The notes beneath the pieces are model-generated. The model ran no database searches and had not been told where the DNA came from. It worked only from the letters and a program-made list of their open reading frames with translations. A DNA stretch of 15,016 nt from a virus. Position 1 is the stretch's first letter, and each line of letters opens with the position of its first letter. A program made the translations under genes and the position numbers. Positions 1 through 14,405 of the stretch are shown here, piece after piece. Location of the stretch: UHGV virus genome UHGV-0154878, one strand, 5' to 3'.

Positions 1-194
1 CTTGATCCATAGAGGATAAATGCAGACATCCCTTGTCTTGCTATGATCACTAGAATCATGAAACGAGCTGATCTATGCGCCCAAGCCTGGCTTATTTTTT
101 CTGATAGAGATTTCGCACTAAAAGCATGCGCTAAGCCGTAAATTGTCGAGATTGCCAACATCCCAAAAAAGCTTGCTATAGCGGTTCCAACCAT
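1..194 (-). CDS. Hypothetical small membrane protein, 3' end truncated by the window edge (N-terminal 64 aa visible: MVGTAIASFFGMLAISTIYGLAHAFSAKSLSEKISQAWAHRSARFMILVIIARQGMSAFILYGS...)
   Basis: Hand translation of the - strand from an ATG (complement of 192-194) stays open to position 1. An AAGGGG Shine-Dalgarno lies about 6 nt upstream. It starts 17 nt downstream of the cI stop on the same strand, so it is probably co-transcribed with cI. Two hydrophobic stretches are visible. It is absent from the ORF track because it has no stop in the window. Confidence 0.5.
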   Translation of the reverse strand, partial: MVGTAIASFFGMLAISTIYGLAHAFSAKSLSEKISQAWAHRSARFMILVIIARQGMSAFILYGS

Positions 195-211
195 AATCGC
201 CCCTTGCGTGA

Positions 212-928
212 TCAAACCAGCCTTAGTTTTGTCTCAATTGCAACGCCTATAATCTTGCAGTTTCCATTGATTGGCACGAGAGGCCATGCAGGGTTAAGTC
301 CCTTGAGGTATTTATTTCCGCCGTCGATTATCAGCTTCTTGAATGTTGCTTCGTTAGAGTCAGAAAGTTTTGCTATGACCAAGCTGCCGTTGATCGCCTC
401 CCTTCCGGTATCGAAAAGAACGAATGTTCCCTCTGGAATGCTTAACCCAACCGGTGCCGTCATTGAATCACCTTCCACTTTAAGCCAGAACGCATTACCT
501 TGAATATGCGCGTCAGACTCAAGCCAAACATCTATGTCTTTAATGGTGTATGGTTCGCATGCTTCACACCACGAGCCAGCCTGGATACTGCTTAACACCG
601 GATACCTCTTTCCTGCTCTGTATTCCCCTGCATACCTTACGTTGGCATCGCTCTTAAGGCTTTCTGCCTGTTCTGCAACCTTGGCAGCAATTGACTGGCT
701 AAAATCAGCAATTGAGACTTGCAACAATCGTGCAAAACCAGATGCAACCTCAACGTTTAGCGCATTTCTGCCATTAAGATAATGCCCTACCGCTCCTTGG
801 GTGATACCCAGTTCATCAGCGATTGAGTATTGGGTTATTCCCAATTCTTTCTTTTTTGACTCATACAAAGCCTTAAGCCGCTTAGCGTCTTCGAGCTGTT
901 CTGTCGTCAGTGATTTTTTATTTTCCAT
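212..928 (-). CDS. cI: CI-type prophage repressor (N-terminal HTH, C-terminal S24/LexA-like autocleavage domain)
   Basis: The 238-aa ORF aligns by eye with lambda CI along its length (LTxEQLEDAxRLKAxYExKKxELG...; FWLxVEGxSMTAP; ATFKKLIxD). It is divergent from the cro-like gene across a roughly 100-bp operator region. Confidence 0.93.
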   Translation of the reverse strand: MENKKSLTTEQLEDAKRLKALYESKKKELGITQYSIADELGITQGAVGHYLNGRNALNVEVASGFARLLQVSIADFSQSIAAKVAEQAESLKSDANVRYAGEYRAGKRYPVLSSIQAGSWCEACEPYTIKDIDVWLESDAHIQGNAFWLKVEGDSMTAPVGLSIPEGTFVLFDTGREAINGSLVIAKLSDSNEATFKKLIIDGGNKYLKGLNPAWPLVPINGNCKIIGVAIETKLRLV

Positions 929-934
929 AGCTTA

Positions 935-1012
935 ATTCTAATAGCTAAGGTACTTAAACTAAAAATACCCTGAGTATTGATTGCTTTGAATACCTGTAGT
1001 ATTCTTTGTTCA
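935..1012. promoter_or_regulatory. OR-like immunity operator region with three sites sharing AATAC-N5-GTATT, plus candidate divergent promoters PRM and PR
   Basis: Two perfect palindromes are AATACcctgaGTATT (964-978) and gAATACctgtaGTATTc (988-1004). A degenerate third is AATAGctaagGTACT (940-954). Centre-to-centre spacing is 24 to 25 bp. A candidate PRM -10 (TAGAAT on the - strand, + coordinates 935-940) sits about 6 nt upstream of the cI ATG, implying a leaderless cI mRNA as in lambda. A candidate PR is TTGATT (977-982), 17 bp, TATTCT (1000-1005). Promoter hexamers are weak matches and uncertain. Confidence 0.6.
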
Positions 1013-1034
1013 TGGTTAATAACGGAGAGTGCAT

Positions 1035-1229
1035 ATGATTCGAATGACACTTGCCGATTACGCCAAAATCCATGGACAGGCTAAAGCAGCCAGTGACTTT
1101 GGTGTAATCCAGTGCGCTATCAGCAAGGCCATTCTGGCAGGCCGTAACATCATGGTTACGGTAAAGCCTGATGGCAGTGTGATTGGAGAGGAAGTTCGTC
1201 CTTTCCCAAGCAACAAGAAAAACAAATAG
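1035..1229 (+). CDS. cro: Cro-type repressor
   Basis: The 64-aa product [62 protein letters not shown] aligns with lambda Cro ([21 protein letters not shown]...PFPSNKK). GGAG lies 7 nt upstream of ATG 1035. The track's GTG at 1029 is an alternative start. Confidence 0.85.
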
Positions 1230-1235
1230 TAACAC

Positions 1236-1305
1236 CGCTCTTTAACAGTCATGGTCCTCATTCCCGCCGAAATGCGGGAATACAACGCGCATAAGTTGAT
1301 GCGCA
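1236..1305 (+). promoter_or_regulatory. nutR-like site (boxA plus boxB-like hairpin) followed by a tR1-like hairpin
   Basis: CGCTCTTTAACA at 1236-1247 matches the boxA consensus. A perfect 7-bp stem hairpin TTCCCGC-cgaaat-GCGGGAA follows at 1261-1280. A second hairpin GCGCAT-aagttg-ATGCGC at 1287-1304 precedes a T-rich tract. The location between cro and cII matches lambda nutR/tR1. Confidence 0.45.
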
Positions 1306-1337
1306 TAACTTCTTATTTGTTAAGGAAATACTTACAT

Positions 1338-1616
1338 ATGCAACTTACAAGTACTCGCAAGAAAGCGAATGCAATTACAAGCAACATCCTGAATCGAATT
1401 GCTGTACGTGGTCAGCGAAAGGTTGCCGACGCGTTAGGGATTAATGAATCGCAAATTTCGCGATGGAAAGACAGCTTCATCCCAAAAATGGGAATGCTTC
1501 TGGCTGTGCTGGAGTGGGGTGTTGAAGACGAGGAATTAGCGGAGCTGGCAAAGAAAGTAGCCATGGTGCTGACAAAAGAAAAGCCTCAAGACTGCTGCAA
1601 CAGTTTTGAGGCCTGA
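1338..1616 (+). CDS. cII: CII-type transcriptional activator
   Basis: The C-terminal part aligns with lambda CII ([42 protein letters not shown]). I place the start at ATG 1338 with AAGGA about 11 nt upstream; the track ORF begins at 1251. Confidence 0.8.
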
Positions 1617-1650
1617 TGTAGAAAGACTGGATCAATCCACAGGAGTCATT

Positions 1651-1797
1651 ATGACAAAACAACTCAGTCCTTACCAGGACAAAATTCACAAACACATACT
1701 ACGTGATCGCTTCCTGTCCAGCTTCAAGCAGCCTGGTCGATTCCGGGCTGAGTTGGAAAAAGTGAAGCTGATGCAGAAGGAGAAAGGTCATGAGTAA
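1651..1797 (+). CDS. Hypothetical small protein (48 aa) between cII and the replication initiator
   Basis: AGGAGT Shine-Dalgarno 5 nt upstream of ATG 1651. Its stop overlaps the downstream start by 8 nt. No recognisable family. Confidence 0.4.
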
Positions 1798-2689: not shown

Positions 2690-4115
2690 TTTTTATGCGC
2701 CGCCCCATAGCATCGAGGCAGAGCAGGCGGTGATTGGTGGATTGCTTCTGGATGATGACAGCAGTGAGCGCGTCCAGAAAGTTCTGGCGATGCTGAAGCC
2801 TGATTCATTTTACAGCCGACCACACAAAATCCTTTTCGAAGAAATAACCAGAATGCACCGGGAGCAAAAGCCAGTAGATGGCCTGACGCTTTTCGATGAA
2901 CTGGAGCGTAAATCGTTAACGGCGTCTGTTGGCGGTTTTGCTTATATCGCTGAGATCGCAAAGAACACGCCAAGCGCAGCAAACATCGTTGCCTATGCAA
3001 TGCAGGTTCGTGAAACCGCAATGGAACGCTACGCCATCAACCGCATGACTGAAGCGACGGAATTGCTCTATTCCCGCAACGGAATGACTGCAACGCAGAA
3101 GTACGAAGCTATTCAGGCGATTTTCACGCAACTGACAGACCATGCAAAAACCGGATCGCGTCGCGGCCTTCGCTCATTTGGTGAGGTCATGGAAGACTGG
3201 GTTAGCGACCTTGAGAAGCGATTTGACCCGTCAGGCGAACAACGAGGAATGAGCACAGGGATCCCATCGCTGGACAGGATGCTGTCACCGAAAGGTCTGG
3301 TGAAAGGCTCTCTGTTTGTCATTGGCGCTCGCCCTAAGATGGGGAAAACGACGCTATACAGCCAGATGGCAATCAACTGCGCAGTGCATGAGAAAAAGCC
3401 CGCTCTGATGTTCAGCCTTGAAATGCCAGGTGATCAGATACTGGAAAAACTGGTAGGGCAGAAGTCTGGTGTTAACCCGAATATTTTTTACCTTCCGGCG
3501 ACAAATGACGCTGATGACGGCTATCAGGGTGATTACGATGGTGACTTCAACAGGGCGATCGAAACAGCCAATCGCTTGAGTGAAATCGACCTGCTTTACA
3601 TCGACGACACGCCGGGATTATCTCTGGCTCAAATCGTCAGCGAAAGCCGTCGAATCAAGCGAGAAAAAGGATGTGTTGGCATGATTCTGGTCGATTACCT
3701 GACACTAATGACCGCTGAGAAGGCCGATCGCAACGACCTTGCTTACGGCATGATCACCAAAGGACTGAAGAACCTTGCCAAAGAGCTTGATTGCGTTGTT
3801 GTGCTTCTGACACAGCTTAACCGCGCACTGGAAAGCCGAACCAATAAACGCCCATTACCAAGTGACTCGCGAGATACAGGGCAGATTGAACAGGATTGCG
3901 ATTATTGGGTCGGGATCCATCGTGAAGGTGCTTTTGATGACAGCGTTCCTCCTGGTGAAACCGAACTAATCCTTCGTCTCAATCGTCATGGCAATACCGG
4001 CACGGTGTATTGCATTCAGGCAAATGGCGCTATTTATGACACAGACCAACAGTCTGCTGAAATGCGCCGACGTGAACGCGAGGAACCGCAGTCCAAGAAG
4101 AAAGGAGGATTCTGA
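2679..4115 (+). CDS. Replicative DNA helicase, DnaB family (P22 gp12-like)
   Basis: DnaB N-terminal domain (SIEAEQAVIGGLLLD...). Walker A GARPKMGKTT. RecA-like C-terminal region. GAGGG Shine-Dalgarno before ATG 2679, which overlaps the upstream stop. Confidence 0.9.
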   Translation: MTDNFYAPPHSIEAEQAVIGGLLLDDDSSERVQKVLAMLKPDSFYSRPHKILFEEITRMHREQKPVDGLTLFDELERKSLTASVGGFAYIAEIAKNTPSAANIVAYAMQVRETAMERYAINRMTEATELLYSRNGMTATQKYEAIQAIFTQLTDHAKTGSRRGLRSFGEVMEDWVSDLEKRFDPSGEQRGMSTGIPSLDRMLSPKGLVKGSLFVIGARPKMGKTTLYSQMAINCAVHEKKPALMFSLEMPGDQILEKLVGQKSGVNPNIFYLPATNDADDGYQGDYDGDFNRAIETANRLSEIDLLYIDDTPGLSLAQIVSESRRIKREKGCVGMILVDYLTLMTAEKADRNDLAYGMITKGLKNLAKELDCVVVLLTQLNRALESRTNKRPLPSDSRDTGQIEQDCDYWVGIHREGAFDDSVPPGETELILRLNRHGNTGTVYCIQANGAIYDTDQQSAEMRRREREEPQSKKKGGF

Positions 4116-4805: not shown

Positions 4806-5252
4806 ATGAGGCAAATATACATGCTTCGCAACGAAGCAATCAGAAACAACGCCATAGACGCAATACACTCACTTCCGATCGACGACAAGTCACCCCACGA
4901 AGTCCACATTAAAGAACCAAAGCGGAGCAATCCTCAAAACCGCCTTATGTGGGCGTTATTGCAGGACGTATCGCGTCAGGTGCTCTGGCATGGAGAGAGA
5001 CTTGCGCCGGAGGACTGGAAAGATCTGTTCACTGCCCTGTGGCTTAAGACCAAAAAACTGGAGCAACGAAGTGCGCCTGGTATCGACGGTGGCGTTGTTA
5101 TGCTTGGCGTGCGTACCAGCAAAATGCGAAAGGCCAGCATGACTGAGCTTATCGAAATCATGTTCTGGTTCGGCTCAGAGCGCAACGTGCGGTGGAGTGA
5201 TGACTCCCGGCGAGAGTATGAATGGTCACAACGAAAAGGGAAGGCTGCATGA
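4806..5252 (+). CDS. ninB: NinB/Orf-family recombination protein
   Basis: Resembles lambda NinB (QNRxLWAxLxDVSRQVxWHG...WKxxFTA...RxVRWSD). ATG 4821 is an alternative start. Confidence 0.75.
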   Translation: MRQIYMLRNEAIRNNAIDAIHSLPIDDKSPHEVHIKEPKRSNPQNRLMWALLQDVSRQVLWHGERLAPEDWKDLFTALWLKTKKLEQRSAPGIDGGVVMLGVRTSKMRKASMTELIEIMFWFGSERNVRWSDDSRREYEWSQRKGKAA

Positions 5253-5776
5253 CTATCAAATCAAATACGCCAGCACACGACAAGGACTGCTGGCAAACGC
5301 CGCTCTGGCTTTTTGATGCGCTGGATATTGAGTTTGGATTCTGGCTGGATTCAGCTGCGAGCGACAAAAACGCTCTGTGCGCTCACTGGCTAACTGAGGC
5401 TGACGACGCGCTAAATTCTGAGTGGATAAGCCACGGTGCAATCTGGAATAACCCACCGTACAGCAATATCAGGCCGTGGGTGGAAAAAGCCGCTGAGCAG
5501 TGCATACAACAGCGACAGACGGTAGTGATGCTTGTGCCAGAGGATATGTCAGTCGGATGGTTCAGCAAGGCTCTGGAGAGTGTCGACGAAGTTCGCATTA
5601 TCACTGATGGACGGATTAATTTTATCGAACCATCGACAGGGCTGGAGAAGAAGGGAAACAGCAAAGGCTCCATGCTGCTGATTTGGCGACCGTTCATCAG
5701 TCCTCGACGGATGTTTACTACCGTATCCAAAGCGGCATTGATGGCGATCGGGCAGGGCGTCAGGAGGGCGGCATGA
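5249..5776 (+). CDS. Phage Dam-family DNA N6-adenine methyltransferase (orphan)
   Basis: Motifs DxWQTPxWLFDALDxEFGF and NPPYS (the catalytic D/N-PP-Y/F motif). ATGA overlap with the ninB stop. No adjacent restriction endonuclease. Confidence 0.8.
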
Positions 5777-10840: not shown

Positions 10841-11314
10841 ATGGCTGCATTAAAACCTGATGTGAAAGCCTTCATCATTCAGTCGCTTGCGTGCTATGAC
10901 ACGCCATCGCAGGTGGTCGAGGCTGTCCAAAAAGAATTCGGGATCAAGATCACCCGCCAGCAGGCTGAATCTCACGACCCCACGAAGGCCAGCGGTAAGA
11001 CGCTCGCCAAAAAGTGGATCGAGATGTTCCACGCGACGCGCGAACGGTTCCTGACCGAAACCAGCGACATTCCGATCGCGAACAAATCCTATCGCCTCCG
11101 CGTGCTTGACCGCATGGCAACCAAAACCGAGGGGATGAAAAACTTCTCCCTGACGGCGCAGCTGATTGAACAGGCCGCGAAAGAGGTTGGCGACGCTTAC
11201 ACCAATAAGCTGAAGGTTGAGAGCACTGGCAAGGATGGCGGCCCGATCAAGACCGAGACGACCAACCTCACCGCAGATCAGGCCGCAGAGATTTACCGCA
11301 AGATGATGGGGTGA
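10841..11314 (+). CDS. Putative terminase small subunit (DUF2280-like)
   Basis: 157-aa ORF immediately upstream of the large terminase subunit, with an overlapping stop. The N-terminal region looks like a DNA-binding domain. Assignment is by position and weak recollection. Confidence 0.5.
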
Positions 11315-11316
11315 TC

Positions 11317-12939
11317 ATGCCTCTCCCGTTTGAATTCGATTTCAGAAACCCTGATTACCAGATGGTTTTTGAATGGCGGATGGAGCGCTTACAGCGCATT
11401 CGCCAGAACCCTGAAATGCTGCCAGCGCTAAAGCAGTTTTACCGCACCAACCCGGCACAGTTCATCATCGACTGGGGTATGACTACTGACCCGCGTAACA
11501 TCGATTATGGCCTGCCGGTCACCATCCCTTTTCTGCTGTTCCCGAAACAGGAAGAGTGGATTCACTGGATCATGGAGCGGCGCGAACGACTGGAGAACGG
11601 CATCACCGAAAAGAGCCGCGAAATGGGGCTCAGCTGGACGGCGATCGGGCTGGCCTGTTCGCTCTGCCTCTTCAACAAAGAAATGGTTATCGGTTTCGGC
11701 TCCCGTAAAGAGGAATACGTCGACAGCACCGGTGACCCGAAGGCGCTGTTCTGGAAGGCGCGAAAGTTCGTGGAAACACTGCCCATCGAGTTTCGTGGTT
11801 CGTGGGACGAGAAGAAGCATGCGCCGTATATGCGCGTTGAGTTTCCAGATACTGGCGCGGTTATCAAAGGCGAGGCTGGCGACAATATCGGACGTGGTGA
11901 CCGTACCACGCTCTACCTGGTGGATGAAGCTGCATTCCTCCAGCGTCCTCTGTTGATTGATGCGGCGCTGTCGCAAACCACCCGTTGCCGTATTGACCTG
12001 AGCTCGGTTAATGGCATGGCGAACCCGTTCGCGCAGAAGCGCCACGGCGGAAAAATACCAGTATTCACATTCCACTGGCGAGATGACCCGCGCAAGGATG
12101 AAGAGTGGTATCGCAGGGAGTGCGAGAAAATCGACAATCCGGTGGTGGTGGCGCAGGAACTTGACCTGAACTACAGCGCATCTGCGGAAGGCGTCCTGAT
12201 CCCGTCCGACTGGGTACAGGCTGCCGTCGACGCGCATATCAAACTTGGTATTCAGCCAACGGGCAAGCGACTTGGCGCGATGGACGTCGCCGACGAAGGC
12301 CGGGACAAAAATGCCTTTTCGACCCGTCACGGCTTCCTTCTGGAGAACGTGCGTGAATGGTCCGGCGTGGGCAGCGACATTTACCAGTCCGTTGAGAAGG
12401 TCTTCGGCTTTTGCGAACAGGACAACCTCGAAGAGTTTCGCTTCGACGAGGACGGCCTGGGTGCTGGCGTTCGCGGCGATGCGCGCGCCATCAACGAACT
12501 GCGTAACGCTGCGCGCCGACCGTCAATACTCGCCACACCGTTTCGTGGTAGCGGCGCGGTATTTGATCCGGACGATGAAGCGGTGCGCGGGGACAACGGA
12601 CAGGCCGCACGCCTGAACAAGGACTTCTTCGCCAACGCCAAGGCCCAGAGCTGGTGGTGGCTACGCAAGCTTTTCCAGAACACCTATCGCGCCGTGGTTG
12701 AGGGCATGGCCTACAACCCGGACGAAATCATCTCAATCAGCAGCGCCATGGCGAGCAAAGACAAACTCATCATCGAGCTGTCGCAGCCGACCTACTCCAT
12801 TAACGGCGTGGGGAAAATCGTTGTTGATAAACAGCCTGACGGCACCAAGTCGCCGAACCTCGCCGACTCGGTGATGATCAGCTACGCGCCAATGAATTCA
12901 GCCCTGAACATCTGGGAGCTGCTAGGGAGACAGGCCTGA
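11317..12939 (+). CDS. Terminase large subunit
   Basis: About 540 aa with ATPase and nuclease-type architecture (LYLVDEAAF Walker B-like segment), positioned between the small terminase and portal. GGGG Shine-Dalgarno 6 nt before ATG 11317; GTG 11311 is the alternative start. Confidence 0.85.
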
Positions 12940-14405
12940 TGGCACGAAACAAGCAATCCTCTCAGCGAACGGCACAGCCCACCGCTGACGGCTACGAGAA
13001 CTTCGTCGCCCGCGTTGGGATGCAGACGCCTAACCAGCATTCAGCATCGACCTACCGGGCGAACTTCACCAGCCGCAACCGCATGCTGGTGGAATGGTCA
13101 TATCGCGGTTCGTGGGTTATCGGTGAAGCGGTCGACGCTATCCCGGACGATATGACCCGAAAGGGCATTCGCATCACTTCGGAGATTGACGCCAAAGACC
13201 GTGGCACCCTCGAAGCGCAACTGGATGAGTTGCAGATCTGGGATGCGCTGAACGACGTGCTGAAATGGTCGCGCCTCTACGGCGGCGCGGTCGGCTTCAT
13301 CATGATCGAGGGGCAAGCACCAATGACCCCGCTGCGACTCGAAACCATTGGCGAGGGCAAGTTTAAGGGCATTCTCCCGCTCGACCGCTGGATGATTAAC
13401 CCGGTGCTGACACGCCGCATTAAAGAGATGGGGCCGGACCTCGGCAAGCCTGAGTTTTACGACGTGGTGACCACCGCAACGGGCATTCCGGCCTGGCGCA
13501 TCCATCACAGCCGCCTGATCCGCTTTGATGGCGTCACGCTGCCATTCCAGCAGAAGATGACCGAAAACGAATGGGGAATGTCGGTTGTAGAGCGTATCTG
13601 GGATCGGCTTACTGCGTTCGATAGCGCTACTGTCGGCGCGGCGCAGCTGGTCTATAAAGCGCATCTGCGTACCTATAGCGTGGAGAAGTTGCGCGAGCTT
13701 ATCGCGCTTGGAGGCCCGGCGTTCGAAGCGTTGCTGAAGAACATCGACCTGATCCGCCAGTTCCAGAGCAATGAAGGTATGACGCTCATGGACTCGCGGG
13801 ATAAGTTCGAAACCCACCAGTACAGCTTTAGTGGTCTGGATGACATTCTTTCGCAGTTTGCTGAGCAGATCAGCGGTGCCGTTGGTATCCCGCTGGTACG
13901 CCTGTTCGGTCAATCCCCGAAAGGCTTCTCTACTGGTGATGCAGACCTCGCCAACTATTACGACCGGGTGAGCTCATTGCAGGAGCGCCGCTTACGGCTG
14001 CCGATGCGCCGGATACTGGACATTATGCACCGCTCGGAACTCGGAAAGCCGCTGCCGGACGATTTCACGTTTGAGTTTAACCCGCTATGGCAAATGTCAG
14101 ACGTTGACCGATCAACGGTGGCCGTAAACACCACCAACGCGATCAGTACCGCGCTGGGCGACGGATTGATGACGCGTAAGGCGGCGATGACCGACCTGCG
14201 CGAAAACTCTGACGTCACCGGCATCGGGGCATCCATTACCGACGAGGACATAGAGAATGCCGAAGACGAAGCGCCGCCAGGCATCGGCGAACTTGGCGAC
14301 AAACCGCCAGAGTCGCCAGGCGGAGATCCGATATCGAACGAGCCTACGGCAGATAGCGCGGGCGGTCGGGGATATCGTAAATGGGCGCTACGATGGTTCA
14401 AATGA
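12939..14405 (+). CDS. Portal protein (DUF1073-type), with an acidic, Gly/Pro-rich C-terminal tail
   Basis: 488-aa ORF immediately after the large terminase (ATGA overlap) and before a head morphogenesis gene. Confidence 0.8.
   Translation: MARNKQSSQRTAQPTADGYENFVARVGMQTPNQHSASTYRANFTSRNRMLVEWSYRGSWVIGEAVDAIPDDMTRKGIRITSEIDAKDRGTLEAQLDELQIWDALNDVLKWSRLYGGAVGFIMIEGQAPMTPLRLETIGEGKFKGILPLDRWMINPVLTRRIKEMGPDLGKPEFYDVVTTATGIPAWRIHHSRLIRFDGVTLPFQQKMTENEWGMSVVERIWDRLTAFDSATVGAAQLVYKAHLRTYSVEKLRELIALGGPAFEALLKNIDLIRQFQSNEGMTLMDSRDKFETHQYSFSGLDDILSQFAEQISGAVGIPLVRLFGQSPKGFSTGDADLANYYDRVSSLQERRLRLPMRRILDIMHRSELGKPLPDDFTFEFNPLWQMSDVDRSTVAVNTTNAISTALGDGLMTRKAAMTDLRENSDVTGIGASITDEDIENAEDEAPPGIGELGDKPPESPGGDPISNEPTADSAGGRGYRKWALRWFK

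Follow-up and report, generated by a model that had tools for sequence, protein, structure and literature searches.

The question raised by this locus is whether the gap between a divergent pair of genes resembling lambda cI and cro holds a right operator of the lambda type, which immunity specificity it would confer, and whether the repressor is translated from a leaderless transcript. The gap lies in a stretch of 15,016 nucleotides from the virus genome UHGV-0154878, which was analysed as a whole and is here called the window. The part under study, positions 935-1012, runs from the -10 hexamer of the candidate promoter PRM to the end of the promoter annotated as pR in phage HK620. We conclude that it is very probably the right operator region (OR), with the promoters PRM and PR, of a lambdoid prophage with the immunity specificity of HK620, and that it would act as a lambda-like switch.

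The genes on either side are readily recognised (Table 1). Over 233 residues the cI protein shares 43% identity with lambda cI, and its cleavage site (QAG) and catalytic serine (SM) and lysine (FKK) are kept; its nearest solved structures are the lambda repressor entries 3BDN, 1LMB and 1RIO. The N-terminus aligns with lambda Met1 and the DNA-contacting arm, and Asp38, Gln44 and Asn55 also align with lambda cI. Gln44 and Asn55 are part of the DNA-contacting surface, while Asp38 is the positive-control residue through which sigma-70 is contacted. In-frame TAA and TAG codons stand directly upstream of the ATG at 928, and no other start is possible. Cro is 63% identical to lambda Cro, and the gene that follows cro encodes a Phage_CII protein (Pfam).

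Table 1 Positions of the features discussed, in the numbering of the window
Feature	Position	Strand	Remarks
cI repressor, 238 aa	212..928	-	Pfam HTH_3 (N-terminal) and Peptidase_S24 (C-terminal autocleavage domain)
Candidate PRM -10, TAGAAT	935..940 (940->935)	-	followed by TAAGCT (934..929) and the cI ATG (928..926); absent from HK620 annotation
OR3 17-mer, TAATAGCTAAGGTACTT	939-955		core AATAGCTAAGGTACT, 940-954, centre 947; degenerate, 2 mismatches; annotated OR3 in HK620
Candidate weak PRM -35, TTTAGT	958..963	-	17-bp spacer, adjoins OR2; 3/6 against TTGACA; position by analogy with lambda PRM
OR2 17-mer, AAATACCCTGAGTATTG	963-979		core AATACCCTGAGTATT, 964-978, centre 971; half-sites perfect; annotated OR2 in HK620
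PR	977..1012	+	-35 TTGATT 977-982, 17-bp spacer, -10 TATTCT 1000-1005, start near A1012; HK620-annotated pR
OR1 17-mer, GAATACCTGTAGTATTC	988-1004		core AATACCTGTAGTATT, 989-1003, centre 996; half-sites perfect; annotated OR1 in HK620
cro Shine-Dalgarno, GGAGAG	1024..1029	+	5 nt before ATG; GGAG invariant in four-phage alignment
cro, lambda-type, 64 aa	1035..1229	+	Pfam Cro, E 3.6e-26
DNA methyltransferase	5222-5776		
Putative phage metallopeptidase	10189-10809		
PHROG family of unknown function	10841-11314		
Large terminase	11311-12939		
Portal protein	12939-14405		

Several things can be read directly from the DNA: where the sites lie and how they are arranged, their match to annotated HK620 features, the extent to which they are conserved, and the nature of the genes on either side. 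A preliminary description of this stretch had reported two perfect palindromes and one degenerate site at a spacing of 24 to 25 bp, and this was confirmed. OR1 and OR2 match AATAC-N5-GTATT without mismatch, and OR3 departs from it at two of the ten half-site positions, one in each half-site, so that the weakest site is the one nearest cI. The centres of OR3 and OR2 are 24 bp apart and those of OR2 and OR1 25 bp apart, roughly 2.3 helical turns in each case, and all three sites fit into the 106-bp gap between cI and cro. OR1 and OR2 are the only exact matches to the motif in the 15-kb window, against a mean of 0.00 in 200 dinucleotide-preserving shuffles and an analytic expectation of 0.012. 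If up to two mismatches are allowed, there are 5 matches for 3.9 expected. Sites as good as OR3 therefore occur at chance frequency, and OR3 is meaningful only through its position and its conservation; by position, the chance of finding such a site (two mismatches or fewer) 23-25 bp from the centre of OR2 is about 0.001. Two other AATAC-like sites, at 1279-1293 and 12051-12065, have two mismatches each, are likewise at chance frequency and are not conserved, and were dismissed as operators.

The operators are already known, having been part of the public annotation of HK620 since 2001 (GenBank AF335538; Clark, Inwood, Cloutier and Dhillon 2001, J Mol Biol 311:657). The 161 bp at 900-1060 are 100% identical to AF335538 9087-9247, and the OR3, OR2, OR1 and pR features of that record map exactly onto the positions given in Table 1. 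The same 161 bp are also 100% identical in HK630, mEpX2, HF4s and phi296/phi367. The cI protein is identical to that of HK620 at 237 of 238 residues, the sole change being A66T, outside the recognition helix and the helix-turn-helix, and Cro is identical at all 64. The preliminary description had held that these sites define the immunity of the prophage and proposed a comparison of the half-sites with known immunity groups, which gives a clear result: the operators are identical to OR1, OR2 and OR3 of HK620. Identical operators, together with near-identical cI and Cro, would place the prophage in the HK620 immunity group, and this membership predicts which phages it excludes and which repressors regulate it crosswise. 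Since the same sites have been annotated for so long, the right operator is in itself ordinary and offers nothing new. The interpretation given in the preliminary description is supported.

The similarity extends well beyond the operator. Window positions 1-1700 are 97.7% identical to HK620, with HK630, HK140, mEpX2, phi296/phi367 and two Stx2c-converting phages similarly close. The similarity to HK620 and to mEpX2 stops near 9.4 kb, and the window, unlike HK620 from there on, is thus a mosaic relative. The OR region is carried by HK630, HK140, mEpX2, HF4s, HZ41, phi296, phi367 and the two Stx2c phages, and by 146 of 5426 complete E. coli genomes (about 2.7%). The prediction on exclusion and cross-regulation takes in these genomes and some Stx2c-converting phages. 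Within the similar part, a direct repeat at 2182-2277 lies in the O-like replication gene, where a 10-residue stretch is encoded twice; it corresponds to the rep_origin feature of HK620 and therefore probably represents ori iterons.

The promoters need more care. The HK620 record has no PRM and says nothing of a leaderless cI, and both are inferred here. The hexamers of PR and PRM are at the positions expected from lambda and are conserved; in PR, TTGA and TATT(C/A)T are kept in relatives. Both promoters score 8/12, and a generic sigma-70 scan of 800-1400 with a threshold of 9/12 reported no promoter. Both calls, being below that threshold, were retained on positional and comparative grounds. 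The -35 hexamer of PRM is the weakest part of the model, and its poor match is consistent with a promoter that needs activation, though it is no evidence by itself.

The preliminary description had placed a candidate PRM -10 about 6 nt from the cI ATG and had seen the degenerate site as overlapping PRM. Both statements hold: exactly six nucleotides separate TAGAAT from the ATG, and the OR3 17-mer covers part of the hexamer, namely its first T and A, as well as part of the spacer. Between positions -20 and -1 of cI there is no GGAG, GAGG, AGGA or AAGG, and hence no Shine-Dalgarno-like 4-mer; cro, by contrast, has its GGAGAG. Given the distance of 6 nt and the lack of such a motif, transcripts from PRM most likely have their 5' end at the A of the AUG or no more than one base away. 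In lambda, cI is described as being made from a leaderless PRM transcript (PMC10491246). It is likely, to judge from this layout, that cI of the window is also leaderless.

The wider family of lambda-type cI genes was compared on this point. A -10-like hexamer was defined as having A at position 2, T at position 6 and at least 4/6 matches. Of the 21 loci, 17 have such a hexamer 5-7 nt from the cI ATG; lambda is one of these 17, and so is a Mixta prophage whose operators are of the lambda type. The family conserves the hexamer itself, but the sequence of the short gap that follows it is free to change. Four loci do not fit. By the strict definition the gap is 3 nt in two Morganella loci, in Pseudomonas phage F116 it is 12 nt, and in Cronobacter phage ENT39118 cI is preceded by GAGG and has no -10 hexamer next to it. 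The departures in Morganella and ENT39118 indicate that the leaderless design is common in the family and not universal.

A second source of cI message should be mentioned. The sequence TTGCGAGTACTTGT (TTGC-N6-TTGT), on the minus strand at 1338-1361 inside the start of cII, matches the cII-binding site and pRE annotated in HK620. Because of this match, cI would also be expected to come from an establishment transcript with a long leader, which reads through OR.

For the conservation analysis, relatives were gathered by a distant DNA search, a protein search of phage records and a scan of bacterial genomes. They comprise Serratia phage OS31, Hafnia phage Pocitis76 and Erwinia phage 49, and prophages of Tatumella, Yersinia, Providencia, Morganella and Xenorhabdus. 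The operators of Fostie and 'Chryseobacterium 18061', which have two mismatches per site and are not cleanly resolved with the motif, were excluded from the consensus. The recognition helix is (T/S)QGAVGHYLNGRN in the three phages and in the Yersinia and Morganella prophages, and differs from this at one to three residues in Tatumella, Providencia and Xenorhabdus. Thirteen loci have AATAC-N5-GTATT-like sites at about -75 and about -50 from the cI ATG, most of them with a weakened third site near -26. In the diverged relatives, from nine other genera, the three sites are 24-25 bp apart, the exceptions being the middle site of Yersinia (4 mismatches) and the third site of Morganella (3-4 mismatches), which are unrecognisable.

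Across the 13 loci, positions 2-5 and 13-16 of the OR1 and OR2 17-mers are conserved at 85-100%, while the central five bases and the spacers between the operators are variable; OR1 is the best conserved of the three sites. Conserved half-sites around free centres are, as far as an alignment can tell, the pattern expected of protein-binding half-sites. OR3 is the weakened site in most relatives, and its two halves differ in fate: the promoter-proximal half, G(G/C)TATT, is near-invariant, with T13, T15 and T16 present in 13 of 13 loci, and the distal half is degraded, showing the identical change to AATAG in 6 of 13. This recurrent change suggests selection for a weak site and not for the lack of one. 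In both promoters, moreover, the -10 element merges with an outer half-site, as GTATT-AGAAT in PRM and GTATT-CT in PR.

On the basis of these observations, we propose the following working of the switch, in which binding, cooperativity, activation, autorepression and the transcript start are carried over from lambda with the help of the conservation. Dimers of the prophage cI would bind the 17-bp pseudo-palindromes nAATAC-N5-GTATTn. OR1 and OR2 overlap the predicted PR -10 (TATTCT) and -35 (TTGATT), so that their occupancy would turn off cro and the early lytic operon. OR2 has its centre some 43 bp ahead of the cI start, and a repressor bound there would be suitably placed to activate the weak leftward PRM (TTTAGT, 17 bp, TAGAAT). 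OR3, overlapping the PRM -10 and spacer, would be filled only at high levels of cI, or by Cro, and would then reduce cI synthesis. The PRM transcript would start at or next to the A of the AUG, and its translation would need no leader, as with lambda cI. In lambda, activation of pM by CI at OR1 and OR2 is reported (PMC1874639). A search of the open literature, which does not include the primary paper of 2001, yielded nothing on binding, footprints or transcript starts for operators of the HK620 type.

It must be asked whether the palindromes are repressor operators at all. They might be inverted repeats that arose by chance, or be bound by some unrelated factor of the host or phage, and their assignment as operators does come from sequence comparison. 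However, no exact match is expected by chance, the motif recurs in pairs 25 bp apart in the OL regions of HK620 and Serratia, the sites accompany the cI/cro pair in nine other genera, and their overlap with the two putative divergent promoters is just that seen in lambda. The comparative data come close to refuting a non-operator reading, which we consider highly improbable. A narrower proposal is that only OR1 and OR2 function, 940-954 being a chance likeness or a site for Cro alone, through which cI would not repress itself. The chance frequency of sites of this quality in the window and the loss of one position from each half-site speak for it, as do the even poorer equivalents of OR3 in Yersinia and Morganella, with 2-4 mismatches. 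Its difficulty is that the site is just where an OR3 should be, that the three T residues of its promoter-side half never change, and that the AATAG form of the distal half looks like selection for weakness; moreover, the annotators of HK620 likewise named this region OR3. We therefore regard a two-operator switch as quite unlikely, and retain OR3 as a probable, weakened third operator.

The leaderless start is a separate matter, since the operators could be real and the cI transcript nevertheless begin elsewhere, be it slightly ahead of the ATG, by a few bases, or at a promoter lying right of OR, with TAGAAT kept merely through its overlap with OR3 and the adjoining flank. The transcript start in the window is a prediction from sequence, the PRM -35 is poor and the generic scan is silent, and two bases of the hexamer do lie within the OR3 17-mer. 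In ENT39118, which belongs to the family, cI is preceded by a conventional Shine-Dalgarno sequence. While lysogeny is being established, a promoter of the PRE type, which the HK620 record places at the equivalent of window 1322-1361, would yield cI mRNA with a long leader. Against this, the four bases of the hexamer that lie outside OR3 (GAAT, CAAT or AAAT) are conserved across genera and the following 5-7 nt are free. The gap of 5-7 nt recurs in the majority of family loci, among them lambda, whose leaderless start is established (PMC10491246). Furthermore, the 11 nt between OR3 and the ATG, which lack a Shine-Dalgarno motif, could not accommodate a leader on a transcript from an OR3-controlled promoter. 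A start elsewhere is in our view unlikely, and a PRM transcript that begins at the AUG is the reading we prefer.

The fused -10 elements, with the cI start 5-7 nt from the PRM -10, occur in lambda-type switches of at least ten enterobacterial genera. A leaderless cI and a deliberately weakened OR3 could accordingly be an ancestral and selected property of the family and not a peculiarity of lambda, a proposal for which, from such comparisons, we see about even chances. In the comparative set, nature has in effect mutagenised a switch built like lambda's but with another operator code; the set also favours the idea that many members of the family have a leaderless cI. What the present analysis adds is the conservation of the sites across genera, the fusion of -10 elements with half-sites and the leaderless layout across the family; the classification of the locus is unchanged.

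The left operator of HK620 lies outside the window and was inspected in the locus sequence L001. OL1 and OL2 are perfect AATAC-N5-GTATT sites 25 bp apart (L001 3655-3669 and 3680-3694). The annotated OL3, TGATGAAATAATGATAA (L001 3701-3717), has half-sites that match at just 4 of 10 positions. A third site with a single mismatch, AATACAAAGGATATT, is found at L001 3725-3739, 45 bp from the centre of OL2, and is identical in HK140 (L002 3725-3739); Serratia phage OS31 has a site with two mismatches at the same +45 position (L004 2712-2726). Each of these +45 sites is followed by TTTATTTTTT, and each overlaps the annotated tIMM terminator. Judged by its sequence, the third OL site of HK620 may be mis-annotated, and the true OL3 may be that at L001 3725-3739. 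If so, the geometry of OL would be unlike that of lambda.

Some other records examined also call for comment. In Serratia phage vB_SspS_OS31 (L004 3529-3577) the annotated cI start is 16 codons upstream, reaching into the operator region, and the conserved ATG at 3529 aligns with Met1 of HK620 and lambda; the start codon is probably mis-annotated. Contigs filed as Shewanella canadensis and as a Chromatiales MAG carry the cI-OR sequence of lambda itself, the 'Chryseobacterium sp. 18061' contig has an enterobacterial, Fostie-like cI, and very short contigs filed as Enterococcus, Algoriphagus and Corynebacterium encode a lambda-like cI. These off-taxon contigs (L024, L025, L019 and L026-L028) look like contamination of assemblies with lambda or enterobacterial DNA.

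Salmonella phage epsilon34 offers a more distant comparison. Its operators, WTACRAWWTGTAT, are likewise only predicted (PMC2629481). The predicted sites TATACAATTTGTATC (L035 1061-1073) and AATACGATGTGTATA (1120-1132) share the core ATAC-N5-GTAT with the HK620 type, and the repressor helix TKGAVSHWLNGR resembles the HK620-type TQGAVGHYLNGR. The epsilon34 repressor is, however, only 33% identical to cI of the window and is without the lambda-type N-terminal arm region, and just two operator sites are annotated, about 59 bp apart.

The closest well-studied system is that of lambda, whose functions were shown by experiment; those of the window are deduced. The preliminary description saw in the window the OR3-OR2-OR1 geometry of lambda with a different recognition sequence, and the comparison bears this out. 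In both phages the gap between the divergent cI and cro is 100-106 bp and contains three 17-bp sites, with the OR3 17-mer beginning 11 nt away from the first base of the cI start codon. The site spacings are 23/24 bp in lambda and 24/25 bp in the window. The PRM -10 of lambda overlaps the end of OR3, its PR -35 the end of OR2 and its PR -10 the end of OR1, and the candidate hexamers of the window are placed alike. PR has TTGACT, 17 bp and GATAAT in lambda, and TTGATT, 17 bp and TATTCT in the window. PRM reads TAGATT-TAACGT-ATG in lambda and TAGAAT-TAAGCT-ATG in the window, with 6 nt and no Shine-Dalgarno sequence in either.

The difference is in what is recognised. The half-site is TATCAC(C) in lambda and AATAC(C) in the window, and the recognition helix is GQSGVGALFNG in lambda and TQGAVGHYLNG in the window. 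The change of lambda Ser45 to Gly was considered as the cause of the changed operator positions 3-4, and was dropped because relatives that bear Ser (the Fostie type, and Xenorhabdus with TQSAISHY) still carry sites of the AATAC/AGTAC type. Finally, the centre of OR2 is at -42 relative to the cI ATG in lambda and at -43 in the window, so that the geometry of activation would be similar to that of lambda and not identical.
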